The translations under genes and the position numbers were made by a program. From Myxococcales bacterium (lineage in GTDB: Bacteria; Myxococcota_A; UBA9042; GCA-2863065), in assembly GCA_018780435.1 (NCBI GenBank), contig JADMJS010000157.1, positions 621 through 64,620 of the forward strand: a stretch of DNA of 64,000 bases, given 5' to 3'. This document shows, piece after piece, positions 5,570 to 42,114 of this stretch. Under the pieces are notes generated by a model, which saw only the letters and a list, made by a program, of their open reading frames with translations, searched no databases and was not told the DNA's origin. The first letter of the stretch is position 1. Every line of letters begins with the position of its first letter.

Positions 5570-5679
5570 GGAGTCTCCCCGAGTTTGGACACCTGCGCGT
5601 ACCATGGGCGACCACTCGGCGCCAGAAACTCACCCTGGTGTTCCAAGCACCTCGAGATCATTGTCGTAACATCTTGTAA

Positions 5680-7116
5680 TCAAACCCGTTTCCTCCCATC
5701 GATTCGCGTCGCGTCGACGCGTTCTCCGAGGGCGGCCTCAAGGGTGCGAGCGAGGTCTGCCAGCTCCGTGTCGAGGACGGTTCGCAGGTCGAGCAACACG
5801 GCATCCTCCTCGAGACGCCCCACCACGGGCGAGCTGGACATACGGAGTCGCGCCGCCAAGGACTCGGCACCTCTGTGTCGGGGCCGGATCCGTACGCCGA
5901 AACTCGGGACCGTCGCGGTCGGCAGCGTGCCGCCTCCGACGCGACCCGACATCGCGACCGCCGCCAGCTCGGCTCGCCCTGCCCCATCGGCGCCGCCAAG
6001 GCCATCGATGAGGGTGGCGCTTCGGCGCTCGAGCTCGACCGTCGGAAGCCCGAGCATCCGGAAGAGCGGGATGCGACGCTCGTGGCTACCGTCGGCAATA
6101 GCGAGCAAGCTTTGTTCGAGGAGAGCGAGCGTGAGCTTGTCGCACCGAAAGGCGCGCATCAGCGGGTGCGACTTCAGTCGGGCGATTGCGGCCCGTTTGC
6201 CGACGACGATGCCGGCCTGTGGCCCGCCCAGCAGCTTGTCGCCGCTCACGGCCACGAGATCGACGCCCGACGCGACGGCGCTCTGGGTGGTGGTGCACTC
6301 GAGCCCATAGGGCCGGAGGTCGACGAAGCACCCGGAGCCGACGTCCCACGCCGAGAGGAGCCCACGTTCACGCGCGAGCCCCGCGAGAGCGTCCGCCTCG
6401 ACCTCCGATGTGAAGCCCACCATCTCGAAGTTGCTGCGGGAGGCCTTGAGGAGCAGCGCCGTCTCGGGGCCGATCGCGCTGCCGTAGTCCTTCAAGTAGG
6501 TCCGGTTCGTGGAACCAACCTCGACGAGCGCGACGCCGGACGTCCGGAATATCTCCGGGAGACGGAAGCTCCCCCCGATCTCGATGAGCTCCCCCCGGCT
6601 GACGATGGCCTGTCGGCCCGCCGCGACGGCGCCGAGGAGGAGCACCATCGCCGCGGCGTTGTTGTTCACGACGACCGCGTCTTCGGCGCCGGTGAGGCGG
6701 CTCAAGACCCGCGCGCAGTGAACGCTGCGGTCACCCCGTTCTCCCGCCTCGAGGTCGAACTCGAGATTGCAGTAGCCGCCCGCGATACGGGCGGCGTCGG
6801 CCAGAAGAGCCGGGTCCATTGGCGCGCGCCCGAGGTTCGTGTGGAGGAGGACGCCGGTGGCGTTGATGACCTTGGTCAAGCTGGGCGTTGCGTCGCGCTC
6901 AAGTGACACGCGCGCGGCCTCGAAGAGCCCTGCTCGCAGTCGCTCCGGCGTCGCGCCGTCTGTCGACGCGAGGGGGAGGTCAGCCCGGAGCGACGCGATG
7001 GCCTCTCGAAACGCATCGGTCACGTTCGAACGCCCAAAGGCTGCTACCAGCGGTAGCGCGCGTGGGTCCGAGAGCAGGACCGAGACGGCGGGGAGTAGTC
7101 GACGATCGATGGTCAC
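5680..7116 (-). CDS. selA: L-seryl-tRNA(Sec) selenium transferase
   Basis: VINATGVLLHTNLGRAP, NLEFDL, VNNNAAA, SRGELIEIGGSFR, EVGSTNRT and the PLP lysine motif SGDKLLGGPQAG. Confidence 0.97.
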   Translation of the reverse strand: MTIDRRLLPAVSVLLSDPRALPLVAAFGRSNVTDAFREAIASLRADLPLASTDGATPERLRAGLFEAARVSLERDATPSLTKVINATGVLLHTNLGRAPMDPALLADAARIAGGYCNLEFDLEAGERGDRSVHCARVLSRLTGAEDAVVVNNNAAAMVLLLGAVAAGRQAIVSRGELIEIGGSFRLPEIFRTSGVALVEVGSTNRTYLKDYGSAIGPETALLLKASRSNFEMVGFTSEVEADALAGLARERGLLSAWDVGSGCFVDLRPYGLECTTTQSAVASGVDLVAVSGDKLLGGPQAGIVVGKRAAIARLKSHPLMRAFRCDKLTLALLEQSLLAIADGSHERRIPLFRMLGLPTVELERRSATLIDGLGGADGAGRAELAAVAMSGRVGGGTLPTATVPSFGVRIRPRHRGAESLAARLRMSSSPVVGRLEEDAVLLDLRTVLDTELADLARTLEAALGERVDATRIDGRKRV

Positions 7117-11926: not shown

Positions 11927-12841
11927 TCAGGGGGTGGGGAAATCTGGCGCGGTGTCGGCGGCGGCCGACTCACCGGGCACGAGCTCCTCGCCAGCCATGA
12001 TGATGGCGTCGCGAGGAATGTAGACGTCGTCTCGAACCTTTCGGACGTGCGTTCGTCCGGAGGCGTGTGTGGTGACCACGGCGCGATCGACGGTGTAGCC
12101 ATCGAGCCCGAAGAGTTCGAGGCGCTCCGTGCCGGGGCCCATGGTCGGATCAGCGACGACGACGGTCTTGAAGGACCGCTGTGAACGGGCCTCGGTGCGG
12201 AGATCGGAGTAGGTGTTGCGCGCCTTCTCTCCGAAGAGCCGGATGGTTACTCGATCCGCCTCGGCTTCGACGGCGACACGAACCTCGAAGGGATGTGTGT
12301 TTCGAATGACGAGGTCCTTCACGCCGTAGGACACGCTCGCGTCGAAACCAGGTGCGATGTAGACCGGAACCCACGTATGCGCGTAACGCTCGACGATCTC
12401 AAGGCCGCCGAGGACAGCGGCGGCGTGGAGCGTACTCGACGGCTGGCAGACCCCACCGCCGGACTGGTCGACGTACTTGCCGCGGTCGATCGCGGGGGCC
12501 ATTCGGTAGCCGAGGTGTTCGTCGCGCGGACCGACCACGCGGTTGTAGGAGAGCTTCTCGTAGGGCGAGAGGGTGAGCCCGTGAAGGCGCAACGCCGCTT
12601 GACGAACGTTGTGCGCTCGCCGCTCGTGCTCCGCCTTGAAGCGCGTCGTGAACTCCGCTAGCGCAACGCCCGGGAGGGGTTGCGGGGCGAACACGGTGAG
12701 GCCACGGTCGAAGCTCTGCCGCGCGGCAGCCTCCCCGGCCCACATGGCCGCGCCTGCGAACGCCACCAGGGCCAACGCCTTCATCGCCGCGAGTGCAGGC
12801 GGGAGTGCGGGCAGTGTTGGGGTGGACGTGACTCGGCGCAT
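11927..12841 (-). CDS. VanW-family protein, probably secreted
   Basis: R.HNV..AA, SYNRVVGPR, GGGVCQPSSTLH, GLEIVERYAH, Y..PGFDASV and DLVIRN. Start is ATG 12841 or 12784. Confidence 0.88.
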   Translation of the reverse strand: MRRVTSTPTLPALPPALAAMKALALVAFAGAAMWAGEAAARQSFDRGLTVFAPQPLPGVALAEFTTRFKAEHERRAHNVRQAALRLHGLTLSPYEKLSYNRVVGPRDEHLGYRMAPAIDRGKYVDQSGGGVCQPSSTLHAAAVLGGLEIVERYAHTWVPVYIAPGFDASVSYGVKDLVIRNTHPFEVRVAVEAEADRVTIRLFGEKARNTYSDLRTEARSQRSFKTVVVADPTMGPGTERLELFGLDGYTVDRAVVTTHASGRTHVRKVRDDVYIPRDAIIMAGEELVPGESAAADTAPDFPTP

Positions 12842-12935
12842 GGCCGCGGAGCTTATGCGTCCTTCCAGCGTGGCGCCAGAACTCCCGCTCCCCTGCGCTC
12901 GTGCTCTCAATTTCTCTGAGATAGGGGGTATAACG

Positions 12936-15518
12936 GTGAGGACTCGTTCTGGACGGGCAGGACGATCTCGGGGGCCTCCGTTGCGCTACGCCAATCCCTT
13001 GCTGAGCCTCGCGATCGGGAGCCTCGCGATCGGGAGCATCGTCCTCGGCATCGTCCCGCCTTGGTTCGATCCCGAGGCGCAGGCGGCCGACCGGGTGCCG
13101 AAGTCGGCCGCAGCGGAGCGCCTGGACAGCGCGGAGGTCGCGTTCGAGGCGGCGCGACGGCTCGGCGGCGTGAACACGTCCGACGGTCGGGAGCGGCTCG
13201 ACGAGGCAGCCCGCCTCGGGCGAGAGGCCCTCGGGCTCGAGCCAGACTACGTCCGGGCCGCCGTGTTACTCGGCGAGGTCCTGCTGCTGACACGCGAGCA
13301 CGCCGACGCGGATCGGCTCCTCACGAGCGCACTGGTTCACGCTCCGAACGACCTCGCGCTGCTCCATCTCGCCGGGATCCATCGCTTTCGGGCCGGGGCC
13401 CCGGAGCGCGGCGTACCGTTGCTCGAAGCGGTCGTGGCGCGAGATCGCCAGCGTTTCGACGCGGCTTATCTCCTCGCAGGCCACTACTACCGTGTGAAGA
13501 ACGACGCGCGCGCCCTACAACACGCGCTGACCTACCTCGACTCCCGACCGCGGGACGCCGCCGTCCATGGCATGGTGGGCAACCTCCACTTGCGAGCGGG
13601 CCGCGTCCAGCAGGCGATCACGGCCTTCGAGCGCGTCCTCGAGCTCGACCCTGGCAACCTCCCCGTGCGCGTGAACCTCGCCAATGTCCTCTCAGGGCTC
13701 GGCGACCACGCGAAGGCGGTCGAGCTCTACGAGGCCGTGCTGGCGAAAGACCCCACCATGACGATGGTCGAGTTCAACCTCGCGACCGCGTACTGGGCCC
13801 TCGGGCGTTACGGCGCGGCGTCGGCGGCGTTCGGGGCCTTCATCAGCCGGACAGCGGACGGCACCGAGTCGGCCGAGCTCGCTCAGGCATACCACTACGG
13901 CGGTCTCTCGGCGGCGCGTGCCGGCGACACGCCGCTCGGCCTGGAGCGCCTTCGCATCGCGACGGACCTCGCCCCGACCGACCCGTGGCCCCCTTACGCG
14001 GTCGCCGACCTCCTACGAAGAGCACGGAGCGCAGCGAGGGACCGGGAGGCGACGCCCAAAGACGATCTCACCGTTGCGGACTCCTTCATCGCGCTGGCGC
14101 TCCAGCGGAAGGACGACGCCCCAGCCATTCAGCAGCTAGCGGGCCGTATCGCCCGAGATCGCGGGGACTTGAGGCGCGCCCGGCGTCACTTCGAGACCGC
14201 CCAGTCGCTCGCACCGAAGAACGCGCTCGTACGAGCGGAGCTCGGCCACGTGCGAGTGCTTTCGGGCGATCTCGATGGCGGGATCGATGACCTCGAGACC
14301 GCACGCCTGCTCGACGCACGAGAGCCCAAGGTGTCGCCGTGGCTGTCGGCGGCGCGGACCCAACGCGCCGTGCTGCGGATGCGCGCCGGTGACGACCTCG
14401 CCGCCGAGTCCGACCTGCGTCGGGCGCTCGAAGTCGGCCCGCTGCTCGCCGCCACGTGGAACCTCGCGTGGCTCCTCGACCTTCGCGGGGAGCCGCTCCC
14501 GGCGATGCTGGAGGTGCGGCGTGCGCTCGTGGCGTCGCCGGAGGACTCCGATCTCAACTTGCTCCTGGCCTACTTCTCGGCCCGGACGGGTGCCTTCGCC
14601 GACGTCCCCGCCGCGCTCGCGAAGGCCGGCGCGGCACGCGACACCGGCCTTCGCGACGTGGTCTACGGGGCCCTGCTCGCTTCCCGAGGCGAATCCGAAG
14701 CCGCGGTGGCGGCCTACGAGAGCGCGCTCGCCCTCGGCTTCGAGACCAGCGGCGCCATCGCTGAGGTGTGGCTCGACGACGCTGCGGAACACCTGCGGCA
14801 GCGCCGTCCCGCGGAGGCCCTCGCGGCGCTGAGTAAGCTGGCGGACGCGCTCCCCCCCGTCCTGGCTCGCGCCCGAACCACGCTCGAGGTGGTCGCGCTC
14901 TTGTCCCTCGACGGCGCAGCCGGCGGCCGCCCGAAGGGGCTCGACTACCACCGCCTCGAGCGGCTCCTGGCCGTCCTGTCACGGGGGGACCGACGGCTCC
15001 CGCCCCTCCTCGTCGAGCTCGGGCTCGCCCCGCTCATGGAGGAGCTCGACTTCCTCACGGCGTTCGTCGCCTACCGGCTCGGCGACGGCACGCGGGCATG
15101 GGCTTCACTAGACCCGCTGATCCGGGCTAAGCACCCGGACGCCATCGGCCTGGGCGTGGTGGTGCTCCTCGAGCTCGCGGAAGGCGACTTCGCGAAGCGC
15201 GCCTATGACGCCGCCGCGTCCCGCGTCGAGCGGGCGCTCGAGCTCGCGCCCGGCGATCCCTGGGTGCGACACGCGGCCGCTTGCCTCGCGATGGCCCGGG
15301 GCGACGACGACGGCGCGAGTCGGGCTTTCGAGACGCTGGCAGCCACGCGCACGCCCCCCGAAGCCATGTTGAACTTCGGCCAGGTGCTCGCCGACCTGCG
15401 TGGGCGAAGCGTGGAGGCGCATACCTGGTTCCGGCGTTATCTGGAGCAAGGCGGCGTAGTCGCGCGATCCATCGCGAAACGGCGCATCGAGCGCGTCGAG
15501 AGGTACATCTCACCATGA
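12936..15518 (+). CDS. Secreted or membrane-anchored TPR-repeat protein
   Basis: Many TPR motifs (e.g. GNLHLRAGRVQQAITAFERVLELDP) and an N-terminal hydrophobic segment. Start is probably GTG 12936 rather than 12609. Confidence 0.85.
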   Translation: MRTRSGRAGRSRGPPLRYANPLLSLAIGSLAIGSIVLGIVPPWFDPEAQAADRVPKSAAAERLDSAEVAFEAARRLGGVNTSDGRERLDEAARLGREALGLEPDYVRAAVLLGEVLLLTREHADADRLLTSALVHAPNDLALLHLAGIHRFRAGAPERGVPLLEAVVARDRQRFDAAYLLAGHYYRVKNDARALQHALTYLDSRPRDAAVHGMVGNLHLRAGRVQQAITAFERVLELDPGNLPVRVNLANVLSGLGDHAKAVELYEAVLAKDPTMTMVEFNLATAYWALGRYGAASAAFGAFISRTADGTESAELAQAYHYGGLSAARAGDTPLGLERLRIATDLAPTDPWPPYAVADLLRRARSAARDREATPKDDLTVADSFIALALQRKDDAPAIQQLAGRIARDRGDLRRARRHFETAQSLAPKNALVRAELGHVRVLSGDLDGGIDDLETARLLDAREPKVSPWLSAARTQRAVLRMRAGDDLAAESDLRRALEVGPLLAATWNLAWLLDLRGEPLPAMLEVRRALVASPEDSDLNLLLAYFSARTGAFADVPAALAKAGAARDTGLRDVVYGALLASRGESEAAVAAYESALALGFETSGAIAEVWLDDAAEHLRQRRPAEALAALSKLADALPPVLARARTTLEVVALLSLDGAAGGRPKGLDYHRLERLLAVLSRGDRRLPPLLVELGLAPLMEELDFLTAFVAYRLGDGTRAWASLDPLIRAKHPDAIGLGVVVLLELAEGDFAKRAYDAAASRVERALELAPGDPWVRHAAACLAMARGDDDGASRAFETLAATRTPPEAMLNFGQVLADLRGRSVEAHTWFRRYLEQGGVVARSIAKRRIERVERYISP
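13004..13033 (+). repeat. 15 bp in-frame tandem duplication within the signal/TM segment
   Basis: GAGCCTCGCGATCGG twice, encoding SLAIG-SLAIG. Confidence 0.85.
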
Positions 15519-16714: not shown

Positions 16715-17506
16715 ATGACTGAAGCATGGCGCGCGGGACTCAGACCCGAAGTCCTCGAACGCTGGGCGACGCTCGTCGCGGCGGCACGGCAGGCGACACC
16801 CGCGTCCCCGCTACCTGCCGGTGTCGACGCTGCGTCCCTGCAGTCGACCGTCATGACGTGCGCGGAGGCCAAGGGCTTCGTGGCGCTCATGCCCGGCGAC
16901 GAGCAGGGATCCACGACGGTGGCGGTCGCGACGAAGGCACACCACCTCACGCCGCACTTCGCTGCGATCGGCGTCGGCCGGGTCGACGGGTGGGCAGCGA
17001 CCGTGTTGGCGATCGCCGATGCGGAGCCCTTACCGCTACACGCCCCGCCCACCGAGCCCATCATGCCCGCGGGCACGTCGCAGACCCCGTCGATCAGCCG
17101 TGAGGACGCGGCCGCTCTTCAGCGTGCAATCCGGGCGGCCTTCGCGGTGCGTGTCGGCTTCCGACTGCTCGGAGACCCCGCCGTTGGACTCGCCATCGGC
17201 CCCGAAGGAGCAACCCCGCCCCTCGACCCGAGCCAGGGCACCATCTTGCAGAACCCCCAAGGCGCGACCTTCGTCTACCTTCCGTTTCGAATGTGGAGCG
17301 ATGTCATCACGGTGACCATGCTCGAGCAGGGCCTCGTCACGGTGCTGCCGTCCGGTGACACCCAGTTCCTGGTGCCCATCCCTTCTGAGATCCCGGCGTG
17401 GTCGCTCATCGAGACCTTGGCCGACGGCGGCCTCCCGAGCGACGTACACACGTTCATTCACCTGATCGTGCGCCTCTTCGGCCCGAGCGCGTCGCGCCCG
17501 AACTAG
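16715..17506 (+). CDS. Hypothetical protein (263 aa)
   Basis: AAGGAG RBS before the ATG and protein-like composition; no motif recognised. Confidence 0.7.
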   Translation: MTEAWRAGLRPEVLERWATLVAAARQATPASPLPAGVDAASLQSTVMTCAEAKGFVALMPGDEQGSTTVAVATKAHHLTPHFAAIGVGRVDGWAATVLAIADAEPLPLHAPPTEPIMPAGTSQTPSISREDAAALQRAIRAAFAVRVGFRLLGDPAVGLAIGPEGATPPLDPSQGTILQNPQGATFVYLPFRMWSDVITVTMLEQGLVTVLPSGDTQFLVPIPSEIPAWSLIETLADGGLPSDVHTFIHLIVRLFGPSASRPN

Positions 17507-17522
17507 CGCAGCGAAAGCAGGG

Positions 17523-20500
17523 CTACGGCGCCGGCGCCGCCTCGATCCAGTGCGCCGGGTTGGCGGGCGTCGGACCGTGCTTGACCGTCAACGTCAGGGG
17601 CGACGCCGAGACCGTGGCCGCGTCGAAGTCGGCGCCGGGCTGCAGCGTGACCGAGTGGGTCCCCGCCGTGCCGATGGTGAAGTCGAGCGTGATGAAGTTC
17701 GGGTTGCCAGTGATGCTGCCGGTGACGCCGACGTAGGCTTGGGTGATGACCGGGCCGGACGACGGGCTGAAGATGACCATCTGGTGCTGGTCCGCCGGGC
17801 AGCTCCCACCGAGCTGGGCGCAGGTGTTGACCTGGTGACCCGACGACAGCGTCACGCTCTCGTTCGGCGCCTTCACGGAACAGGAGGCGCAGCGACCTGA
17901 CGCGGCGTCACAGATGGGCGCATCGGCCGGGAAGGTCGTGGCGCAGTAGCCCTCCGGCTTGTTCGAGCAGACCGTCGCCGGGTTGTTCGGGAGCGGGTTA
18001 CAGGCATAGACGCCGTTGAAGGTCGCGCCCGCGGGGAGCGCAAGCGTGAGATTCGCCGCCGCCGGCGCCGAGCCCGCCTGAGCGCTGCGTGCCATGGCGA
18101 GCGTGCAACGCACGTTCTCGCCGGCCGACCCCGTGATCTCGCACAGGATCGGCGTGCACGCGTTGTCGACGCAGCGCGAGCCACTCTTGCACTGGCCGTC
18201 CACGACGCACAGCGCCGGACAGGCATTGACGGTCTGGTCGAGCGCGCCCGTGCAGGCGACGTCGAGGTAGTCGCCACAGAGCCGGGTCTGGCCCGCGCCA
18301 CACGCCGAGTCGTCCGGGACGACCTCCGACCCGCAGACCGAGTTCGTACACACCGCCTCGAGCCGCTCGCCGCTACAGGTGCCGGCGTCGGTGCAGGACG
18401 CCGAGGTCGTATACGCGGCCGGGCAGTCGAGCGCCGTCGCGCAGCAATCGCCGCCCGAGCAGCAGCGACCGCCGCCGCAGTAGCCGCTCAGGCAGTCGCC
18501 TCCGACCGTACACGCGCCGCCATCGGCGACGCCCTGAACGCACTGGCCGGCCTGGCAGAGGAAGCCCTGGCCACAATTCGCGCTCGTGGTGCAGGGGTCG
18601 CCCGCACCGCCACTCGTCGAGCAGACGCTCGCGAGGCAGACGAGGCCGTCCTGGCACTCGGACGACAGCGTGCACCCCGATCCCGCAGGCCCATCCACGG
18701 CACACGCACCCGCGGAGCAGTGGTACGCGACATCGCAGTCCGAATCAGTGGCGCATGGGGCGCCTGTCCCCCCCGCCGGGTTGCACACGCCGAGCGCGCA
18801 GACGAGGTCCGGTGTACACATCGCGTCACTCGTACAGCCGTCGCCGATGCCAACGTCCGCCGCGCAAACGCCCGCCGCGCAGTGGAACGCCGGACCGCAG
18901 TCCGAGTCGGCCGTACAGGCCTCCCCACCTCCCAGCGGTTCACGACACTGGCCCGACGAACACGTGAGCCCGTCTGCACATTCGCTCGTTGACGCACAGC
19001 CGCCGCCGAGTCCGACGTCGGTCGTACATACGCCCGAGGCACAGTGGAAGCCCGCCGCGCAGTCGGTATCGACCGTACAGGCGCCACCGCCGCCCAGCTC
19101 TTCCGAACAGACACCGGCGATGCAGGTATACCCGGCGACACAATCCGACGGCGCCGTACACGCAGCGCCGGGCCCGAGGTCGGGCACACATTGGCCTGTC
19201 GGCTCGTCGCAATGTAGTCCGGCGCCGCAGCCGCCGTCGGTCACACACGGATCCCCCGCGCCGCCTGCTTCGACACAGGTCCCCTGGCCGCACACGAGGG
19301 GTGCCGCGCAGTCCGTATCGACGTCACAGCCGGCCCCGGCCCCACCATCGGCGACGCACGTCTCGAGCGCCTCGTTGCAGTGGAAGCCAGGACCGCAGTC
19401 GACGTCCTGAACGCATCCGGTCGTGATGACGGGCGCACAGAGGCCGGCCTGGCAGATGAGCCCGTCGCCGCAGTCCGAGTCGGTCGAGCAGGTCCCGCCG
19501 ATCGGCTGATCGGCCGCACAGAAGCCGAGCCCCTCGTCGCAGTGGAAGCCGGCCGCGCAGTCGGTGTCGGACACACAGGTGGCGCCGCCGCCGCCCGCCG
19601 GGGCGCAGGCGCCCGAGTCGCAGATCGAGCCGGCGACGCAGTCGCCATCGACGACGCAAGGCCCGCCATTGCCGACATCGGCCGCACAGGTTCCGGTCGC
19701 GACAGCGCAATGGTAACCAATGGCGCACTCGGCGTCGGACGTGCACGCGTCGCCACCACCGCCCTGCACGGTGCAGACTCCCGCGAGGCAGGTGTAGTCG
19801 GCGATGCAGTCGGAGTCCTGGCCGCAGGCCCCACCGCCGGGGACGTCGACGGCGCATTGACCCGTAGTCTCGTTGCAGTGGCGATCGGACGGGCAATCGA
19901 GGTCCGACGTACAGGTGGCGCCCGGATCCGTACAGAGGCCCGCGTCACAGACCTGGCCGATGAGGCAGTCCGATACCGCCGTGCAGGGACCACCCGGGAG
20001 GATCGCGGTACACTGGCCGATCAGCTCGTCGCAGCGGTATCCGGCGGCGCAGTCGGCGTCGACGACACAGGCATCGCCGCCGCCGCCCGCTTCGCCGCAG
20101 ACGCCCGCCGTGCAGATGAGGGTGTCGGCGCAGTCGCCATCGACGGTGCAGGCCCCGCCGATCGGCGAGTCGGGCGCACACGTGCCCGTCGCTTCGACGC
20201 AATGAAGGCCGACGCCGCAGTCGGCATCGACCACACAGGCGTCACCGAGGCCACCCGCTTCGGTGCAGACACCGGCTTGGCAGGCGAAGCCGGAGACACA
20301 GTCCGAGTCCTCAGCGCACGCACCGCCCCCGGGTACGTCGACGGCGCAGGTCCCGGCCGCGCAGTGGTAGGCCTCGGCGCAATCGCTGTCGAGCGTACAC
20401 GCATCGCCGCCCGTGCCCGACGGCTGGCAGGTTCCGCCGAGGCAGGAGAGCCCACTCGCACAATCGGTGTCGACCACACACGCGCCACCACCGCCGATGT

Positions 20501-23500
20501 CGGCCGCGCAGGAACCGGTCGCTTCGTTGCAGTGGTAGCCGGAGGCGCAATCGCCATCGGTGGTGCAGGCGTCGCCCGAACCACCCGCCGCGGTGCAGGT
20601 GCCAGCCTGGCAAACGTAACCTTGGGTGCAGTCCGAGTCGACCGCGCAGAGCCCACCCGCCGGGACATCTGACGCACAGACCCCGAGCGCTTCGTCACAG
20701 TGCGACGCCGCGACGCAGTCGGCGTCGGTCGTGCAAGCATCGCCGGCGCCGCCGAGAGTGGTGCAGACCCCGGCCTGACAGGAGAAGCCCGCCTGACAGT
20801 CGCTGTCGACGCTGCAAGCGCCCCCGCTGGGGACGTCCACGACGCAAGTCCCGCCCGCTTCATCGCAATGGAAGCCCGGTCCGCAGGCCGCGTCGACGGT
20901 GCACGGATCGCCAACGCCGCCTTCGGGGACACAGGCGCCATCGCGACACCAGAGCCCCGACGCGCAGTCGGACCCGGTACTGCAAGTCCCCCCGGAGGGG
21001 ACGTCGGCAGTACACTGACCGGTGGTCTCATTGCAGTGGTAGCCAGTGGCGCAATCCGTATCGACCGTACACGCGTCGCCGCTCCCGCCGGCCACGTCGC
21101 ACGTTCCAGAGATACACGCGAGCTCGGTCGTACATTGTGCGTCGCTGGTGCACGGCACTCCGGGGCCTCCCTGGGCAGCGCACACGCCGGTCGCCGAGCA
21201 GTAGTACCCCACGGCGCAGTCAGCATCGATGGTACAACTGTCTCCGACGCCACCGGCGGCTTGGCAGGTCCCCGCGGAGCAGATGAGCGCCTCGGCGCAG
21301 TCACCATCGACGCTGCAAGCACCGCCTGTGCCGATGTCGGCCGCGCATTGGCCCGTCGTCAAGTTGCAGTGGTAGCCCACCTGGCACTCATCATCGAGAC
21401 TGCAAGCCGAACCCGTCCCTCCACCCGCCGAGCAGGTGCCCCCAACACACACGAGGAGCGCGCCACAGTCGCTGGACTCGACGCAGCTCCCTCCTGTCCC
21501 GACATCGACGGCGCAGGTGCCGGTCACTTCATTGCAGTGGGTTCCAGCCGCGCAGTCGCCGTCGCCAACACACGCGCCGCCGACGCCCGACGGGTTCACG
21601 CAGACCCCGGCATTACAGATGAGGGGGGTGCCGCAGTCGGAGTCTTGGCCGCATGCAGCGCCCGGTCCGAAGTCCGCGACGCAGACGCCCGCGCCTTCAT
21701 CGCAGTGATAGCCGGTGCCACAATCGCCATCGAGGGTACACGCGTCGCCCGGGCCACCGGCCGGGGCGCAGACGCCACCGATGCAGGTGAGCCCCGCGCC
21801 GCAGTCCGAGTCCGCGATGCAACCCGTGCCCGCGCCACCGTCGAGGACGCAGAGGCCCGACTGCTCGTTGCAGTGGAGGCCGTCGGCGCACTGCGTGTCG
21901 ACGAGACAGCTCCCACCTTCACCGAGGCGCGGCGTGCAGCCCGTGGCTCCGCAGTAGAAGTCCGAAGCGCACTCCGTGTCGGACAAACACGCCGCACCCG
22001 CGCCGCCGTCGGCTTCGCACGTCCCCGTTTGGAAGTCGCAGTGATAGGCCGCGGCGCAATCGACGTCGGTCGTACAGGCATCACCGGTGCCACCACCGGC
22101 CTGGCACGTCCCCGCCGTGCAGACGAGCGTTCCGGCACAATCGGCGGAGGTATCGCAAACGCCACCGGGGCCCGAGTCGCCGACGCAGGTCCCGGTCGGT
22201 TCGTCGCAGTGGTATTCCGCGGCACAGTCGCCGTCCAACACGCACGGCGAGCCGGTCGTGCCACCAACGCCGCACGCGCCAGCGTTGCAGACGAGCCCGG
22301 CTTCGCACTGCTCGGGCCGATCACACGCGGCGCCGGTCCCACCGTCGGCCGTGCAGGCGCCGGACGCGCAGTAGAACGTGCTGGCGCAATCACCATCGGT
22401 CACGCACGGACTGCCGGCCGTCCCGGCGGGCGCACACAGCCCCGAGGAGCAGATGGAGCCCGCGACGCAGTCGGCGTCGACGGTGCACCCCCCTCCGTTC
22501 GGGACGTCCGTCACGCAGGTCCCGTTCGTCTCGTCGCAGTGAAGTGCCGCCCCACAGTCCGCGTCCTCGACGCACGCGGCGCCGGTGCCGCCCGGGGTCG
22601 CACAAACGGCGCTCGCGCACACGAGCCCGGTCGCGCAGTCGGCGTCGATGCCGCAAGCATCGCCAGCGTTGCCATCGGGCTCGCACCCGCCCGTCGCCTC
22701 GACGCAGTGTTGATCGGCGGCGCATTGGTCGTCGGTCGTACAGCCACCGGTACAGAGCCCTGCCGTGCAGGTGAGCCCGTCGGCGCATTGAAGCGTCTCG
22801 GCGCAAGCCGAGCCAGCGCCGAGGTCCGGCGCACACTGGCCCGAGGTGCAGTGATAGCCGGCCGCGCATTGGTCCTGGGTCGTACACGCGTCGCCGGTTC
22901 CGCCAGCGTCTGTGCAGGTGCTGGCCACACACGCAAGGCCCGCCGCACAATCCGACGAGGTGGTACAGCCACCCCCTGGACCGACGTCGGCCGTACACTC
23001 ACCCTGAGCTTCGTCGCAATGATACCCGGCCGCGCAGGCGCCATCCGTCGTGCACGGATCGCCGCCCGCGCCCGGAACGACGCACGTGCCATTGGCGCAG
23101 GAGAGGCCGTCCTGACAGTCGACCGTCGTCACGCAAGCGCCGCCGGGTCCGCTGACCGGGACGCAGGTGGTCGTGCCCGGGTCGCAGCGGAGCCCTGGTG
23201 CACAATCCGCCGTGATCGCACACGCGTCGCCCGAACCACTCGGGAGCTGACAGGTGCCGGCGAGACAGGTCAGCGTGCCGCCACAGTCGCTCGCCGACAC
23301 GCATCCGTCTCCGGGTCCACCGTCAGCGGCGCAGGCGCCCGTCGTCTCGTTGCAGTGATAACCGGACGCACAATCGCCATCGACGACGCAGGCGTCGCCG
23401 CCCGTCCCAGCCGGGACGCACGTGCCCGCCGTGCAGACGAGGCTGCTCGCGCAGTCCGAATCGACGGCGCAGCCGGCGCCGGTGCCGCCATCGGCCTGAC

Positions 23501-25865
23501 ATGTCCCTCCCGCTTCGTCGCAGTGGTAACCGGACGCGCAGTCGGCGTCGATGACGCACGCATCGCCGGCCCCGCCGGCCTGCACACACACGCCGGCCTC
23601 ACAGATGAGCGTGGACGCACAATCCGAGTCCACCGAGCAGGCCTCGCCGGCCCCCGCGTCGGCGACACAGGTGTTGCCAGGGCCACAGTGATACGCCGCC
23701 GCACACTCCGCGTCGGTCGTGCAGGCGTCGCCTCCCGTGCCGAGGACCGTACATACGCCAGCCAGACATCCGAGCCCGTCAGCGCAATCACCATCGACGA
23801 CGCACGCGCCGCCGGCCGGTTGGTCGGCGACACAGGTGGTCGTGCCTTCGTCGCAGTGGAGGCCGTCACCACAATCGGTGTCGACGTTGCAGTCACCACC
23901 GGAGCCCGAGACGGGGGCGCAGACACCCGCGCTGCACGTGAGGCCCGCGCCGCAATCGCTCGGCACGACGCAGGCGGCGCCGGTGGTCCCGTCGGGGACG
24001 CACGAGCCCGCCGCTTCGTCGCAATGAAGCTCGGCGGCGCAGTCGGTGTCGACCGTGCAGCTCCCGCCTGTCCCCGACGCGGGGGCGCAGAGGCCGGAGA
24101 TACACGCGAGGTCGCTCTGACATTCGGACGCGTCGGTACAGCCGGCGCCGACGCCGCCATCCGGCGTACACTGTCCAGCGCCTTCGTCGCAGAACTCGGA
24201 CGCGGCACACTCCGAGTCGAGCGCGCAGCCCCCGCCCGCCGGCAAGGCGCATTGCCCGGCTTGGCACGTCAGCTCCTCGGCACATTGGGCGGTCGTCGTA
24301 CACGCCGAACCCGGGAGCCCGTCGGCGACACACTCGCCCGTGACCGGGCTGCAGTAGTAGGCCGCCGCACAGTCGGCGTCGGTCGCACACGGCGACGTCG
24401 TCGTGCCGGCGTCCTGGCAGGTGCCGCTGGTGCAGACGAGGACACCGGCACAGTCGCCGTCGCGGGTGCACGCCCCGCCCGAGGTGACATCGGCGGCACA
24501 GGTCCCGCTTCCGAAGTCGCAATGGAATGCGGTGGCGCAGTCGCCGTCCGCCGTGCAGGCGGTCCCGCCGGTGCCGGGCTCCGCGCACACCCCGGCGTCG
24601 CAGACGAGGCCGACCGTGCAGTCGGTGTCGACGCCGCAGGGGCCGCCACTCACGACGTCGGCGACGCACAGGCCGGAGACCTCGTTGCAGTGAAGCCCAT
24701 CGGCGCAGTCGGCGTCTTCCACGCAGCTCCCGCCCGATCCGACTTGGGGCGCACAGACGCCCGCGATGCAGGTCAGGCCGGCGCCGCAGTCCGAGTCCGC
24801 GGAACAGGTGCTGCCGGTCGAGCCGTCGGCAATACAGGTCCCGGTCGTTTCGTTACAATGGAAGCCATTGGCACAATCGTTGTCGACGCCACAGCCGGTG
24901 CCGGTACCACCGCCGATCTCACAGGTTGCGACAGCACAAACCTGCCCGATGGGGCAATCGGTCTTCACGGCGCAGCAGGTGGCGGTGACATCGGGATCGG
25001 CGGCGTCGACGAGGCCATCGCAGTCGTTGTCGAGGAGATCGCAGGACGCCTCGGCAAGCTCGTAGGTCGTGAGCACAGCAGCGTAATCGGCCGGCGTGCA
25101 GGCGCTCCACGCGCCCCCGAGACAGAGGCTGGCGCGTTTGTTCGCGTCGCCGCAAACGCCGACTGTGTTCTCGCACGGGACGACGTCGTCCGTGGTCAGC
25201 GACGGGTCGTCGCGGTCGACCAGCAGATCACAGGTGTCGTCGATGCCGTTGCACATCTCAAGCGCGAGGTGAGAGCGAGTGGGATCGAGATCCTGGCAGT
25301 CGTCCGCGTCCGGATCGCCGTCGCCATCGGAGTCCCGATCGCAGAAGTTGAGGCGCCCGTCCCCGTCGACGTCGGGCGAGTTCGGGCCCGATATCTGGCC
25401 GAGCAGCATCTGGATCATGAACTGGAAGTCGACGTTCGAGATGTCGTCGTCACAGTTCAAGTCGGCGTTCCGGCGCTGCGTCGTGCCGAGACAGGTCGCG
25501 GAGACCTCGGTGTCGCTTGCGCACGTGACCGCGGGGTCTTCTCCGATGGTCACCGTGTCGGCGAGGCAGTCGGGCACGCATATCTTGAAGCCGGCATAGG
25601 CGCGCTGGCAGACGCCTTCCGGGCAATCTCCATCGACCGAACAGGCGTCCCCGGTGACGGGCTCCTGCAGCGTCCAGAGCTCGTGGGTGAGGACGAGGCA
25701 CTGGAGGTCCGCTGACGTCACCCGGTCATCACCGGTGAGGTCGCCGGCAGGGGCCGTCGTGATGGGGACCGCCCACGCCGCGATAGGCGATGCGAGCAGA
25801 ATAGCGACGGCGGCAGCGGTGAGGCGGGCTGATCCGCCGAGTCGATGGAGAATCGAGTTCATCAC
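17523..25865 (-). CDS. Giant secreted Cys-rich repeat protein: split dockerin-like N-terminus, Ca-binding/MopE-like motifs, about 60-70 four-Cys modules, C-terminal cohesin-like domain
   Basis: Signal peptide AWA|VP; GDLTGDDRVTSADLQCL...ADLNCDDDISNVDFQFMIQMLLG; EMCNGIDDTCD and CDLLDNDCDG; long GxxCxxDxDCxxGxxC array. Start is coupled to the upstream stop (GTGA/TGATG). Confidence 0.88.
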   Translation of the reverse strand: MMNSILHRLGGSARLTAAAVAILLASPIAAWAVPITTAPAGDLTGDDRVTSADLQCLVLTHELWTLQEPVTGDACSVDGDCPEGVCQRAYAGFKICVPDCLADTVTIGEDPAVTCASDTEVSATCLGTTQRRNADLNCDDDISNVDFQFMIQMLLGQISGPNSPDVDGDGRLNFCDRDSDGDGDPDADDCQDLDPTRSHLALEMCNGIDDTCDLLVDRDDPSLTTDDVVPCENTVGVCGDANKRASLCLGGAWSACTPADYAAVLTTYELAEASCDLLDNDCDGLVDAADPDVTATCCAVKTDCPIGQVCAVATCEIGGGTGTGCGVDNDCANGFHCNETTGTCIADGSTGSTCSADSDCGAGLTCIAGVCAPQVGSGGSCVEDADCADGLHCNEVSGLCVADVVSGGPCGVDTDCTVGLVCDAGVCAEPGTGGTACTADGDCATAFHCDFGSGTCAADVTSGGACTRDGDCAGVLVCTSGTCQDAGTTTSPCATDADCAAAYYCSPVTGECVADGLPGSACTTTAQCAEELTCQAGQCALPAGGGCALDSECAASEFCDEGAGQCTPDGGVGAGCTDASECQSDLACISGLCAPASGTGGSCTVDTDCAAELHCDEAAGSCVPDGTTGAACVVPSDCGAGLTCSAGVCAPVSGSGGDCNVDTDCGDGLHCDEGTTTCVADQPAGGACVVDGDCADGLGCLAGVCTVLGTGGDACTTDAECAAAYHCGPGNTCVADAGAGEACSVDSDCASTLICEAGVCVQAGGAGDACVIDADCASGYHCDEAGGTCQADGGTGAGCAVDSDCASSLVCTAGTCVPAGTGGDACVVDGDCASGYHCNETTGACAADGGPGDGCVSASDCGGTLTCLAGTCQLPSGSGDACAITADCAPGLRCDPGTTTCVPVSGPGGACVTTVDCQDGLSCANGTCVVPGAGGDPCTTDGACAAGYHCDEAQGECTADVGPGGGCTTSSDCAAGLACVASTCTDAGGTGDACTTQDQCAAGYHCTSGQCAPDLGAGSACAETLQCADGLTCTAGLCTGGCTTDDQCAADQHCVEATGGCEPDGNAGDACGIDADCATGLVCASAVCATPGGTGAACVEDADCGAALHCDETNGTCVTDVPNGGGCTVDADCVAGSICSSGLCAPAGTAGSPCVTDGDCASTFYCASGACTADGGTGAACDRPEQCEAGLVCNAGACGVGGTTGSPCVLDGDCAAEYHCDEPTGTCVGDSGPGGVCDTSADCAGTLVCTAGTCQAGGGTGDACTTDVDCAAAYHCDFQTGTCEADGGAGAACLSDTECASDFYCGATGCTPRLGEGGSCLVDTQCADGLHCNEQSGLCVLDGGAGTGCIADSDCGAGLTCIGGVCAPAGGPGDACTLDGDCGTGYHCDEGAGVCVADFGPGAACGQDSDCGTPLICNAGVCVNPSGVGGACVGDGDCAAGTHCNEVTGTCAVDVGTGGSCVESSDCGALLVCVGGTCSAGGGTGSACSLDDECQVGYHCNLTTGQCAADIGTGGACSVDGDCAEALICSAGTCQAAGGVGDSCTIDADCAVGYYCSATGVCAAQGGPGVPCTSDAQCTTELACISGTCDVAGGSGDACTVDTDCATGYHCNETTGQCTADVPSGGTCSTGSDCASGLWCRDGACVPEGGVGDPCTVDAACGPGFHCDEAGGTCVVDVPSGGACSVDSDCQAGFSCQAGVCTTLGGAGDACTTDADCVAASHCDEALGVCASDVPAGGLCAVDSDCTQGYVCQAGTCTAAGGSGDACTTDGDCASGYHCNEATGSCAADIGGGGACVVDTDCASGLSCLGGTCQPSGTGGDACTLDSDCAEAYHCAAGTCAVDVPGGGACAEDSDCVSGFACQAGVCTEAGGLGDACVVDADCGVGLHCVEATGTCAPDSPIGGACTVDGDCADTLICTAGVCGEAGGGGDACVVDADCAAGYRCDELIGQCTAILPGGPCTAVSDCLIGQVCDAGLCTDPGATCTSDLDCPSDRHCNETTGQCAVDVPGGGACGQDSDCIADYTCLAGVCTVQGGGGDACTSDAECAIGYHCAVATGTCAADVGNGGPCVVDGDCVAGSICDSGACAPAGGGGATCVSDTDCAAGFHCDEGLGFCAADQPIGGTCSTDSDCGDGLICQAGLCAPVITTGCVQDVDCGPGFHCNEALETCVADGGAGAGCDVDTDCAAPLVCGQGTCVEAGGAGDPCVTDGGCGAGLHCDEPTGQCVPDLGPGAACTAPSDCVAGYTCIAGVCSEELGGGGACTVDTDCAAGFHCASGVCTTDVGLGGGCASTSECADGLTCSSGQCREPLGGGEACTADSDCGPAFHCAAGVCAADVGIGDGCTSDAMCTPDLVCALGVCNPAGGTGAPCATDSDCDVAYHCSAGACAVDGPAGSGCTLSSECQDGLVCLASVCSTSGGAGDPCTTSANCGQGFLCQAGQCVQGVADGGACTVGGDCLSGYCGGGRCCSGGDCCATALDCPAAYTTSASCTDAGTCSGERLEAVCTNSVCGSEVVPDDSACGAGQTRLCGDYLDVACTGALDQTVNACPALCVVDGQCKSGSRCVDNACTPILCEITGSAGENVRCTLAMARSAQAGSAPAAANLTLALPAGATFNGVYACNPLPNNPATVCSNKPEGYCATTFPADAPICDAASGRCASCSVKAPNESVTLSSGHQVNTCAQLGGSCPADQHQMVIFSPSSGPVITQAYVGVTGSITGNPNFITLDFTIGTAGTHSVTLQPGADFDAATVSASPLTLTVKHGPTPANPAHWIEAAPAP
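18470..24980 (-). repeat. Degenerate tandem array of about 33 aa four-cysteine modules, alternating A/B types (about 200 bp di-repeat)
   Basis: Type A GGACxxDxDCxxGLxCxAGxC alternates with type B GDACxxDxDCxxGYHCxExxGxC through the translation; boundaries are approximate. Confidence 0.85.
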
Positions 25866-28729
25866 TTCACCTCCGTCACGAAGCCGCGACCGGGTCCAAG
25901 AGGCAGCAGCTCCCAGGGGAGCTCGAGACCATTCGGGGGATTGAGCGACACGTCGCTGACGCCGACCCGGAACGGCGAGGCCGGCGTGAACGTGGCGGCG
26001 AGCCTGAAGCGCGCCTTCAAGAGCAGTGGATCACCGCTCACGGAGCCGCCGGAGTCGATGACGGCGCCCGTCAGCGGCGTTGACGGCTGCGACGAGTGAT
26101 AGACCGTCAGGGCGAGCTTGTTCGCCCAGTCTTTCTTGTGCTTCGGGATGCCGATGACTTGGTGGTGCGCAGGCTCGAGGCTGCCCCACACGCAGGCGCC
26201 GCCGTTCTCGTCGCACTCGGCGAGCGAATAGTCGAAGCAGATGGCGCCGAAACACGCGGCGTCGACCACGTCGATGAGCTGGGCCTCGGTCGCCTTCCAC
26301 TGCAGGACGACATCGAAGCCGGTGGGCAGGGCGGAGCCGGTGAGCGACGCGACTTGGACGAGGCAGTCGACCTCGTCGGTCGCGTTACCTGCGAGCTCGC
26401 ACATCGTCCCGACGACACAGCCGACGGGCGCGTCGTGCAGACATCCCTCGCTGGGGCTGCAGCTATCGAGAGTGCAGTCGATGCCGTCGTCGCACGATTG
26501 CGGCTGACCGTCGCACACGCCGGTCGCGGGTGCACAGGCCCAGTCGACCTTACATTGGTACCCATCCGGCGGGCACACGACCACGGTGGCCGGGTCGAGC
26601 TCACACGTCCCCGCGTTGCACACGAGGACGCCGGTACAGGCGTCCCCGTCGTCTTTGGCGATGCAGTCGTCGTCGCCTTCGCAGCCGCACGTGGCCACGT
26701 CTGGGACGCCACTACAGCCGATCGGCGAACACTGGTCGTTCATGGTGCAAGGGTCCCCGTCGTCGCACGCGCCCATGCCGTCGCTCTGCTTGCAACCTTG
26801 ACCGACGACGCACGTGCCAACCGAACACGCGACGCCGTCGTCGCAAGCGCCGTCGTCCGGTGTGATGGCGCAGCCCGTCTCGGGCTCGCAGGCGTCGAGT
26901 GTACACGCGATCCCATCGTCGCAGCCGACGGGCACGCCCGTGCAGACGGCGGCGCCGCTGCACTTGTCGTCTTGGGTGCAGGCGTCGTCGTCATCGCAAA
27001 GAGCGCCGACCTTGGCGGTGGGCTCACAAGCGCCGGTCGCGGGGTCGCACGCGCTGTCGACGCACGGGCTGTCGTCGTTGCAGACCGGTGGTGCCTTGGG
27101 CTCGACGTCGCAATGGCCAGCCCCATCACACGCGCCGGTGGTCGTACAGGCGTCGTCGACGGGGCACGCCATCGTGTCGGCGGCGAACTGACCTCCCACG
27201 CACTGACCGTTCTGGCACGCGTCTGACGTCGTACAGGGGTTTTCATCGTCACAAGCGCCGTCGGTGGCTGCGTTCGAACAGAGCCCCGCGGTGCAGGCGT
27301 CCGCCGTACACGGATTCAGGTCCGCGCAGAGCGTCGTGCCGCAGGGGACCTCGCCCGTGAGGACCACGGCCCCCACCAGCTTCGAGGTGAGCTCGACACC
27401 TGCGGCGGTGTAGGCCTCGACCGCCTTCAGATGCACCGGCGCAGCGAGCGTGTCTTTGGTCAGCACGAAGCGGAAGGTGGTGACCTCGGCGTCGCCAACG
27501 ACCTGCTCGTCCTCGACGAAGGCCATCGTGATCGGCCGGTTCGGATCGCCCAGGTGGGCGAGCTCAACGGTGCCCTGCCCCGCCCAGTCGGCCGGCGCCG
27601 GCGGGCTGGCGATCAGAGTGTGGCCGCTCGGGTCGAGGGCGCTGCCAGCGTCGGGGCGGAGGACCGTCGTGCATGGTCCTCCGTTCGGGAAGCAGACCCG
27701 GTCCTCGAAGCCGGCGAAGCTGGCGTCGCCTTCCGGCCAGGCGAGCGCGAAAGCGAGGGTGGCGGCCGCGGCTTCATCGCCGGCAGACCGCGCGAGCTGA
27801 AGATCACAACGAACGACGTCTCCCACCTTGCCAGAGAGGACACAGAGCACGGCGCAATCGGCTTCCACGTCGGCGTCACAGGCGCCGCCGGCGCAGACAC
27901 CAGCGCCGCCGCACGCGCTGGCGATCTGGCAGGCGCCGCCGTCGTTCGGTGCGGACGAACACTTCCCGTCATTCCCGCAGGTCTCGGTGGTGCAGACGTT
28001 GCCGTCGTCGCAGTCGGCGTTGGTGCTACAACAGGGGACGGACGGGTCGAGGTCGTGCTGGCAGCCGAGGGTGGGGTCGCACGAGTCGGCGGTGCACGCC
28101 TTGCCGTCGTCGCAGTTCAGCGGGCCGACCGACAGGCACCCGGACGCTGCCTGACAGCTCTCGGCGCCATTGCAGACGTTCGAGTCGTCTTCGCAGGAGA
28201 GCGGCGCGCCCGGGACACACCCCGTCGATGGTTCGCAGCTCTCGGGGCCATTGCAGGCGTCGCCGTCGGCACACGAGAGCGGCGTCCCGGGCTCGCACCC
28301 CGCGGCGCCGCAGGTCTCCGCGCCATTGCAGGCGTTGCCGTCAGAGCAGCCGGGCGTGGTGGGTTCGCAGATGAGGTCCGCTGCCGACGCGCCCGGCGCC
28401 GGCTCGACGCATCGGTCGCCGAACGAACAGGCGTCGCCATCGTCGCACGTCGCGCCGAGTGCCGCGGGCCCCGTGGTGCAGAAGCCGCCCTCGCACACGC
28501 CGACCTGGCAGGCCCCTGCAGGGCATTCGGCGTCGGTGTCGCAGGCGGTCACCGTGGTGTCGCCCGTTCCCGTGGCATCGCCGCTCACGTCGGTCGAGAC
28601 GTCGTCGGAGGTCACGGGCGGTGCCGATGACTCTCCCCCGCACGCGAGTACCAGGGTGAGTACGAAGGTCCGCCCGTAAGAGGCTCGGAGGATGGACCGC
28701 GTGAGGCAGGTCCAGTGTTTCTGTATCAT
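25862..28729 (-). CDS. Cys-rich lipoprotein with CDDGNxCT/CNG repeats and two cohesin-like domains
   Basis: Lipobox VLAC-GG. Start reassigned to ATG 28729 (GGAG RBS). Non-repeat domains begin LCVLSGKVGDVVRC and MCELAGNATDEVDC. Confidence 0.85.
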   Translation of the reverse strand: MIQKHWTCLTRSILRASYGRTFVLTLVLACGGESSAPPVTSDDVSTDVSGDATGTGDTTVTACDTDAECPAGACQVGVCEGGFCTTGPAALGATCDDGDACSFGDRCVEPAPGASAADLICEPTTPGCSDGNACNGAETCGAAGCEPGTPLSCADGDACNGPESCEPSTGCVPGAPLSCEDDSNVCNGAESCQAASGCLSVGPLNCDDGKACTADSCDPTLGCQHDLDPSVPCCSTNADCDDGNVCTTETCGNDGKCSSAPNDGGACQIASACGGAGVCAGGACDADVEADCAVLCVLSGKVGDVVRCDLQLARSAGDEAAAATLAFALAWPEGDASFAGFEDRVCFPNGGPCTTVLRPDAGSALDPSGHTLIASPPAPADWAGQGTVELAHLGDPNRPITMAFVEDEQVVGDAEVTTFRFVLTKDTLAAPVHLKAVEAYTAAGVELTSKLVGAVVLTGEVPCGTTLCADLNPCTADACTAGLCSNAATDGACDDENPCTTSDACQNGQCVGGQFAADTMACPVDDACTTTGACDGAGHCDVEPKAPPVCNDDSPCVDSACDPATGACEPTAKVGALCDDDDACTQDDKCSGAAVCTGVPVGCDDGIACTLDACEPETGCAITPDDGACDDGVACSVGTCVVGQGCKQSDGMGACDDGDPCTMNDQCSPIGCSGVPDVATCGCEGDDDCIAKDDGDACTGVLVCNAGTCELDPATVVVCPPDGYQCKVDWACAPATGVCDGQPQSCDDGIDCTLDSCSPSEGCLHDAPVGCVVGTMCELAGNATDEVDCLVQVASLTGSALPTGFDVVLQWKATEAQLIDVVDAACFGAICFDYSLAECDENGGACVWGSLEPAHHQVIGIPKHKKDWANKLALTVYHSSQPSTPLTGAVIDSGGSVSGDPLLLKARFRLAATFTPASPFRVGVSDVSLNPPNGLELPWELLPLGPGRGFVTEVK

Positions 28730-41876: not shown

Positions 41877-42114
41877 GGCGCTACCATTGCGAAGTTTCTT
41901 GGGGATGTCGAGGGCGTCGGCATGCCACCCCCTGCCTTCCCCATATCTCGCTGACATTTGTGTTCAGGAGCCCGGCGCCAGGCACGAACGAGTCGCCGCG
42001 ACCATCGAGAGACCTCGCTGACCCTTGAATTCAGGAGCCGCGGGCATCGATTCGAACGTTGCCGTGTGGCATAAGGGCCGTGTCCCCCTGGCAGCACTAC
42101 AAGGAGTTCCCTAC

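Follow-up and report, generated by a model that had tools for sequence, protein, structure and literature searches.

A giant cysteine-rich rod protein with a dockerin-like head and a predicted cohesin-fold tail: a possible head-to-tail surface assembly in a Myxococcales genome

In cellulosomes, the dockerin serves as a plug with two repeats of a calcium loop plus helix, multi-socket anchor proteins carry the cohesins, and plug-bearing subunits are encoded nearby. The type I dockerin is compact (~60-70 amino acids (aa)), with a short linker between its repeats, and cohesins bind dockerin on one sheet face made of strands 8-3-6-5, as in the type I complex of Clostridium thermocellum (1OHZ). Adaptor scaffoldins, among them R. 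flavefaciens ScaC and A. cellulolyticus ScaB, combine the two modules in one chain, a dockerin plug at one terminus and a cohesin socket of a different type at the other, and their genes lie beside that of an anchoring scaffoldin. We describe here a gene for a giant rod protein with a dockerin-like module at its N-terminus (the head) and a cohesin-like module at its C-terminus (the tail). It lies in a 64,000-nucleotide stretch of contig JADMJS010000157.1 (the window) from a Myxococcales metagenome-assembled genome (MAG) of a groundwater bacterium. An original prediction, made from the letters of this stretch, had proposed that the rod may polymerise head to tail.

Two published cases are closest to this proposal. 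In the report on Ruminococcus bromii Amy4, the cohesin of this protein recognises its own dockerin and those of others, and this self-recognition was proposed to give multimers, with other dockerin proteins competing for the cohesin (PMC4611034). Since the cohesin of Amy4 binds its own dockerin, the protein is a precedent for a head-to-tail arrangement, and like the rod it has both modules in one chain. However, Amy4 as described there is an amylase with canonical, Pfam-recognisable modules and measured binding, whereas the rod is non-catalytic and its binding is predicted. A second report describes non-cellulosomal cohesin/dockerin proteins, proposed as adhesins, in anaerobic methanotrophic (ANME) archaea and their sulfate-reducing partners (PMC10553843), and proteins of this kind are thus already known. 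They share with the present proteins a use of cohesin and dockerin outside polysaccharide degradation, probably in surface or matrix assembly. The ANME proteins were found by standard domain annotation, in that account, whereas Pfam does not recognise the present family, which occurs together with Dickkopf_N/DUF7107-type repeats and lipoprotein anchors. No description of the present system, and no mention of DUF7107, was found in the literature searched, which included few subscription journals; the accessible passages of a preprint on giant genes (10.1101/2023.11.21.568195) concern other proteins.

We conclude that the four genes between 17523 and 35404 probably encode a non-enzymatic surface assembly that resembles a cohesin-dockerin system and is divergent in sequence. 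Compared with cellulosomes, the socket family has no sequence match to Pfam Cohesin or to cohesins of the PDB, the plug is N-terminal and split by an insert of ~68 aa with conserved cysteines, no enzyme payloads were seen, all modules are rich in cysteine, anchoring would be through lipoproteins and not SLH or sortase, and the host belongs to a high-GC MAG lineage. Compared with adaptor scaffoldins, the rod has a presumably disulfide-rich spacer of 2,145 aa between its modules, and one prediction favours the rod head on the rod's own tail type. Apparently new are the sequence families themselves, a plug that is both N-terminal and split, the use of lipoproteins as anchors and a giant Cys-rich spacer of fixed length.

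The open reading frame (ORF) at 17523..25865 on the reverse strand is a single gene of 2780 codons. Translation probably begins at the ATG at 25862-25860, and the resulting protein (P0001) of 2779 aa contains 362 cysteines (13% of residues). From the N-terminus it consists of a signal peptide, the head (residues 33-200), a stretch resembling TSP3 and MopE, 78 four-Cys units, a Cys-rich connector and the C-terminal domain (2566-2780). The putative partner modules therefore lie at opposite ends of the chain with four-Cys repeats between them, as had been predicted, and the ORF, the domain layout and the fold of the tail all agree with this. A regular expression counted 78 consecutive C-x5-C-x5-C-x4-6-C units over residues 298-2442 (2,145 aa), in which cores of 18 and 20 residues alternate, each followed by a Gly-rich linker of 9 residues (periods of 27 and 29). 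Two Pfam families matched the rod above their cut-offs, DUF7107 (E value 3.6e-124, 405.4 bits, 41 stretches) and Dickkopf_N (2e-116, 380.6 bits, 32 stretches). A rod segment gave nothing significant against PDB sequences (best E 0.13), and no NCBIfam family was found in the rod or the two anchor proteins. The units are presumably disulfide-bonded and the rod stiff. The connector with its CC..CC motif (18171-18539) recurs in the relatives P0155-P0158 and P0168, sometimes repeatedly, and resembles a separate unnamed module.

The head contains two F-hand-like segments (residues ~42-64 and ~133-157), with a Cys-rich insert of ~68 aa between them. In each, a D-x-[NT]-x-D loop precedes a helix pattern, an arrangement kept in 18 aligned and 9 trimmed heads, and at the level of sequence the head has the two F-hand repeats of a type I dockerin. 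It differs from the compact type I module in that its repeats are ~68 aa apart, with conserved cysteines between. Pfam Dockerin_1 (cut-off 22.9 bits) scored 21.4 bits on the whole rod, 24.5 bits on the N-terminal 296 aa and 23.4 bits in a genome scan, and 26.4 bits on the relative P0157; the best stretch on the head covers the second repeat and the following calcium loop only. Six of the nine weak matches of the head in the PDB were type I dockerins, at non-significant E values of 1.1-2.1, and the ESM Atlas gave, as leads only, clusters with 10-54% Dockerin_1 members at a score of 0.87. The head follows the signal peptide directly in 16 further proteins (E 1e-51 to 7e-20), all of which keep both F-hand motifs. 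Payloads of head-bearing proteins include LTD, fibrinogen-C-like, Dicty_CTDC, TIG and Dickkopf-type repeats, and no enzymes were seen among those examined. We consider the head a conserved portable module that is dockerin-like, with a borderline match to Dockerin_1. The source genome has two copies, one in the rod and one in a divergent gene at 32198-35404 that also encodes TIG repeats.

Several minor observations concern the head. Cys24 (in DLQC) and Cys106 (in DLNC), one per F-hand repeat, are invariant in 9 of 9 heads, and a disulfide stapling both repeats through this pair is possible. Genomes G254 and G294 each have 8 matches to the cohesin-like family and four copies of a head match that covers only residues ~90-167, and a plug variant that lacks the first repeat, or has another in its place, may exist there. 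Elsewhere in the source genome, a 774-aa protein (L034, contig G000:C393, 611-2935) carries at its end a dockerin-like module of two repeats that is compact and looks canonical (Dockerin_1 23.2 bits, above the cut-off; no other Pfam family in the protein), and this module could partner the anchor-type cohesin-like modules.

Five related domains were found in the window, namely the tail and two each in the neighbouring proteins P0002 and P0003. In a search of 1.84 billion proteins with a profile of these five, 281 cluster representatives matched at E<=1e-3, and a single protein can hold as many as 8 copies. Family membership of the tail is genuine, since a profile of 237 family domains built without the rod matched it with 58.5 bits over positions 2-169 of 192 (E 3.9e-20 for one target). 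An AlphaFold2 model of the tail from a 40-sequence alignment had a predicted local distance difference test score (pLDDT) of 76 and a predicted template modelling score of 0.73, with low confidence confined to the Cys-rich insert. Comparison of this model with 48,161 chains using VIA-align placed cohesin modules at all of ranks 1-18 (Z 9.7-6.7), with root mean square deviations (rmsd) of 2.4-3.6 A over 114-130 aligned residues; the cohesin of the type I complex, 1ohz_A, matched the beta-sandwich with Z 9.1 and an rmsd of 2.9 A over 122 residues. All 12 chains with Z>=8 were cohesins, and the first other fold was the Csp protease domain at Z 6.5. In Foldseek, the matches shown among ranks 1-20 were likewise all cohesins, at E values no better than 0.012-0.051. 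The model has the nine-stranded flattened beta-sandwich (jelly-roll) of a cohesin module, and on this structural prediction we regard the tail as a cohesin by fold, one that has no sequence match to Pfam or PDB cohesins. Both module assignments of the original prediction are thus supported: the tail by its modelled cohesin fold, and the head by a two-repeat motif and borderline Dockerin_1 matches.

A first tail model, from 5 sequences, was too poor (pLDDT 59.6) and was replaced by the 40-sequence model. Searches with it were ambiguous (Foldseek E 0.02-0.3; VIA-align Z 7.8-7.0, with Csp protease domains level with cohesins). The ESM Atlas gave tail leads at scores of 0.81-0.82, one of these clusters having 12% Cohesin members; these are leads only.

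The tail represents a distinct subtype within the cohesin-like family, as judged by its sequence. An H..P..W motif is present in 195 of 250 family domains (155 proteins). The tail keeps the His, has Cys at or beside both other positions and has an added Cys-rich insert; this count and the alignment bear out the earlier remark that it lacks the P...W seen in the other four domains and carries extra Cys-rich sequence. Eight tail-type domains from different lineages share the C..C pair and the insert, and the head is found at the N-terminus of the same protein in all seven tail-type proteins whose N-terminus is present, the eighth (P0026) being a fragment. A search for longer relatives of the tail, among proteins of up to 2000 aa, returned P0026 only. 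A further cohesin-like domain lies inside a 4911-aa open frame in a genome of the same family (G369:C7:2443-2961).

We examined the distribution of both modules in 401 genomes of the phylum. The full head was present in 7 genomes, all of one class, and the cohesin-like family in 12. Matches to the head occurred in 9 of the 12 genomes with the cohesin-like family compared to 6 of the 389 others, and, the genomes including kin that are not independent, this co-occurrence is a pattern and not a statistical test. An ORF with both head and tail was found in six distinct loci from genomes and metagenomes (the window, L038, L035, L045, L046 and L049), and in all six a two-domain anchor-type cohesin-like gene ends directly upstream on the same strand. 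A locus in a congener (L039) has the same layout as the window, and the truncated head genes of L041 and L047 have the same anchor-type neighbour upstream. This neighbour is missing for the other head genes examined, which are those of the TIG protein and its congener copy, L037 (the L052 contig), L040, L042, L043, L048, L050 and L051, and the head-only genes of L045 and L046. A gene for a head plus TIG protein is present within the cluster in the window, the congener and L045.

Proteins with head and tail differ widely in length between lineages (676, 701, 1556 and 2779 aa for ORFs or deposited proteins; 1432, 2611, 3868 and at least 3283 aa for open frames). In the largest relatives, L035 (6388-17991, the 3868-aa frame) and L049 (3116-12964, at least 3283 aa), the cohesin-like domain is not terminal; in L035 it is followed by ~670 residues with no Pfam match.

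Binding of the head was modelled in one four-chain complex prediction, in which the rod head was presented with the rod tail and with the C-terminal and internal anchor modules of P0002. The head was placed on its own tail with a score of 0.67 (runs 0.73, 0.67 and 0.65), compared to 0.06 for the best of three controls, and this passes a mark that, as a rough guide, 116 of 157 solved complexes and 2 of 215 mismatched pairs also reached. Between runs, >=77% of contacts agreed, and the pLDDT of the partner chain was >=72. When the head was replaced, the score was 0.00 in two cases. The confident interface also depends on the tail, because replacing the tail alone, with both anchor cohesins kept, dropped the score to 0.06. 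Predicted contacts involve helix 1 (residues 18-34) and helix 3 (111-125) of the head, that is, both plug helices, as in cellulosomal complexes, and residues 37-40, 115-122, 130-138 and 181-191 of the tail. The C..C pair that replaces P..W falls inside this tail patch, and the contact strands would correspond, by strand order without superposition, to strands 3, 5, 6 and 8, the face on which cohesins bind dockerin. A smaller contact of the head (29-34) with the C-terminal anchor module did not stand alone, and chain 3 had no confident contact. The score of 0.06 for the head with the two anchor cohesins, once the tail had been replaced, neither supports head-anchor binding nor is evidence against it.

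The model supports binding of the head to the tail, short of showing it. For the original proposal, that filaments form if the dockerin accepts its own cohesin, this leaves polymerisation plausible but unproven. In the arrangement that we favour, P0002 and P0003, each with two anchor-type cohesin-fold modules, would be exported as lipoproteins, and the rod would be secreted through its Sec signal peptide. The N-terminal, split dockerin-like head with its calcium loops would act as the plug, the 78 disulfide-bonded four-Cys units as a spacer of fixed length, and the tail-type cohesin-fold module at the C-terminus as the socket. The tail would take head modules, those of other rods included, giving head-to-tail concatenation, and the neighbouring head plus TIG protein would close the chain as its tip or cap by filling the tail left free. 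That rods dock in this manner and are capped by the head of the TIG protein is a tentative proposal, to which we would give a little less than an even chance. The proteins would be located on the surface, where heads may attach to anchor cohesins, rods may form a polymer in the cell's own setting and the whole may have an adhesive or matrix role; assembly may depend on calcium, and each extended rod might, as a rough figure, measure ~100-200 nm. The complete picture, of open-ended extracellular fibres that need no pilus machinery, made of disulfide-stapled rods joined by a diverged cohesin-dockerin pair, rooted on two-socket lipoproteins and capped by a competing TIG tip, is doubtful.

A number of points weigh against head-to-tail docking. 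Pfam Cohesin gave no match at E<=10 in any of the five domains, and a 40-sequence profile of the tail family found no cohesin among PDB sequences, with one chance match at E 0.99. The prediction was a four-chain job with custom alignments, unlike the calibration, and the reference rates quoted above hold only roughly for it; its pass may also reflect a fold-level memory of solved cohesin-dockerin complexes. Close cousins of a true partner pass as well, as did 10 of 12 colicin pairs in a test of the prediction tool, and the head of the TIG protein, 39% identical to that of the rod, may be what the tail binds in reality, in which case the rod head passed through its resemblance to it. Across the eight tail-type domains, the predicted interface is no better conserved than the rest (0.38 over 28 positions vs 0.40 over 140 others), and the altered motif of the tail could exist to prevent self-binding. 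Finally, the gap-free conservation of rod length in the congener, described below, is explained by a ruler or adaptor no less readily than by an open-ended polymer.

This last point leads to an alternative that we consider quite possible, if not probable. The rod may be a strict adaptor whose head binds anchor modules only and whose tail binds the TIG head only, giving a stalk of one rod and of defined length (anchor, rod and TIG tip) that does not self-polymerise. Such an arrangement would fit the gene order, in which the anchor precedes the rod in all six rod loci (in the window the two genes overlap at TGATG), the head plus TIG gene in the cluster in the window, the congener and L045, and a monomer length kept exactly between two species at ~85% identity. 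The H..P..W positions, at which the tail subtype departs from 195 of 250 domains, moreover lie inside the predicted interface, and cellulosomes are known to include adaptor scaffoldins with a single cohesin and a single dockerin. It is opposed by the placement of the rod's own head on the tail (0.67 vs 0.06 for the best control), which depended on the tail; the caveats on docking given above apply. The alternative offered with the original prediction, a fixed-length spacer that would switch specificity, also suits the exact length in the congener and the anchor-then-rod order.

It is improbable that the two ends are not a binding pair at all. The head would then be a calcium-binding structural or matrix-binding module of the EF-hand/TSP3 type, the rod would be a stand-alone fibrillar adhesin or matrix protein, and the cohesin-fold domains would serve as spacers or adhesin domains of a generic beta-sandwich kind. 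The Dockerin_1 match is indeed borderline and under the cut-off on the whole protein (21.4 bits), the dockerin matches of the head in the PDB are not significant (E 1.1-2.1), sequence does not connect the cohesin-like family to cohesins, adhesins, which stand lower in the VIA-align list, often have beta-sandwich folds, and all payloads of head-bearing proteins look adhesive and not enzymatic. However, the head and cohesin-like families co-occur (9 of 12 vs 6 of 389 genomes) and their genes share operons, the top 18 structural matches are all cohesins and not adhesin Ig domains, and in the complex prediction, which passed, none of the three controls exceeded 0.06.

That the 2,779-aa protein is not real, its ORF being a pseudogene or an artefact of assembly or repeats, can hardly be the explanation: although the MAG is fragmented into 783 contigs and the gene is internally repetitive, the repeats are diverged, Pfam matches reach E ~1e-124, the congener ortholog is collinear over its full length without gaps on two contigs with a 41-aa overlap, and independent contigs cover 17000-26500 with no insertions or deletions. 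In the congener, one piece of the ortholog corresponds to frame positions 5-2429 (85% identity, 0 gaps) and the other to 2389-2834 (84% identity, 0 gaps), the two contigs sharing the same 41 residues. The double units of the array have a mean identity of 45% and a maximum of 68%, and the repeats, from their divergence, are old. The region 17000-26500 is covered by contigs X3 and X4, from one sample of an independent groundwater-metagenome study, which are short contigs and not single molecules. Joints seen in independent contigs all had sides of <=28 letters and were disregarded, such joints often arising from repeats or other organisms. Repeat number, which the original prediction had suggested checking across strains, did not vary between the rod, the congener and the population of X3/X4; the idea of a rapidly varying repeat array was accordingly dropped. 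By these sequence comparisons, rod length is fixed within the genus, and a repeat protein of 2,779 aa whose length is kept exactly between species provides a clean case of selection on length. A scan of genome contigs with one protein as query matched the congener alone.

An entire cohesin-fold family, of 281 cluster representatives, is invisible to Pfam, which suggests that assembly of the cohesin-dockerin type extends further beyond cellulosomes, into diderm-like high-GC bacteria, than annotation shows. If the contact between head and tail is true, it would represent a simple route to long surface fibres from self-joining monomers, and could supply a disulfide-stabilised plug-and-socket pair for protein engineering.

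The features of the rod and its neighbours are listed in Table 1. The TGA of the upstream anchor gene (25864-25862) overlaps the ATG of the rod (25862-25860), and a GGAGG (25874-25870) sits 7 nucleotides 5' of this ATG. Because of the overlap and the motif, translational coupling of the anchor lipoprotein gene to the rod gene is a fair inference; the coupling was part of the original prediction, of which the overlap and the GGAGG are what the DNA itself displays.

Table 1. Positions, in the window, of the rod gene, its domains and the adjoining anchor and TIG genes.
Feature	Coordinates	Strand	Basis
Rod gene P0001	17523..25862	-	ORF, start context, Pfam; 2779 aa from ATG
Shine-Dalgarno motif GGAGG and TGATG stop/start overlap	25860..25874	-	Sequence
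Signal peptide, ends AWA before VPITT	25770..25862	-	Translation; position kept in 16 head-bearing relatives; presumed cleavage site
Dockerin-like head, aa 33-200	25266..25769	-	Pfam Dockerin_1, alignments
Head F-hand 1	25674-25742	-	Alignments
Head Cys-rich insert	25470-25673	-	Alignments
Head F-hand 2 (a Ca-loop/TSP3-like stretch follows)	25395-25469	-	Alignments
TSP3-like/MopE-motif Cys-rich region, aa 165-296	24978..25373	-	Pfam Cu-binding_MopE 30.2 bits
78 four-Cys units, aa 298-2442	18540..24974	-	Regular-expression count; Pfam DUF7107, Dickkopf_N
Cys-rich connector with CC..CC motif, aa 2443-2565	18171..18539	-	Similar module in aligned relatives
Tail, predicted cohesin-fold domain, aa 2566-2780	17526..18170	-	Family hidden Markov model, AlphaFold2 model, VIA-align, tail-type alignment
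Predicted anchor lipoprotein P0002, from M96, lipobox LVLAC	25862..28729	-	Translation; presumed start codon
P0002 cohesin-like A1	27347-27859	-	Family profile
P0002 cohesin-like A2	25865-26422	-	Family profile
Second anchor-like protein P0003	29061..32027	-	Translation
P0003 cohesin-like A1	30552-31112	-	Family profile
P0003 cohesin-like A2	29064-29615	-	Family profile
Head plus IPT/TIG protein, 1068 aa	32198..35404	+	Head at ~32270-32770; divergent from anchors

Read by eye from M96, P0002 has a basic n-region and a hydrophobic core, and its LVLAC is followed by GG, whereas P0003 has a signal peptide followed by FPGC, a non-canonical lipobox; on these readings export as a lipoprotein is likely for P0002 and less so for P0003. 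The head of the TIG protein is 39% identical to that of the rod (E 2e-33), and IPT/TIG repeats follow it (Pfam TIG 59.3 bits, 6 stretches). Two other lipoprotein-like proteins of the source genome, at L032 (8693-12001, contig G000:C516) and L033 (2704-4473, contig G000:C384), each start with one anchor-type cohesin-like domain; the first lies in a 2418-aa frame in which repeated Cys-rich modules follow, C-type-lectin-like by eye, and the second has 589 aa.

The MAG measures 9.35 Mb in 783 contigs and is 94% complete, with the rod locus on its contig C409, and the G+C content of the window is ~69%. No secretion-system genes were seen adjoining the cluster. Envelope-related genes elsewhere in the window include a LysM protein (4253-5605, reverse strand), a VanW-like protein (11927-12910, reverse), a large TPR protein (12609-15518, forward) and an ORF with a sub-threshold collagen-repeat match (42025-43065, forward). 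The window also contains a gene for selenocysteine synthase at 5680-7116 on the reverse strand (SelA, E 3.6e-128), and the organism probably uses selenocysteine.

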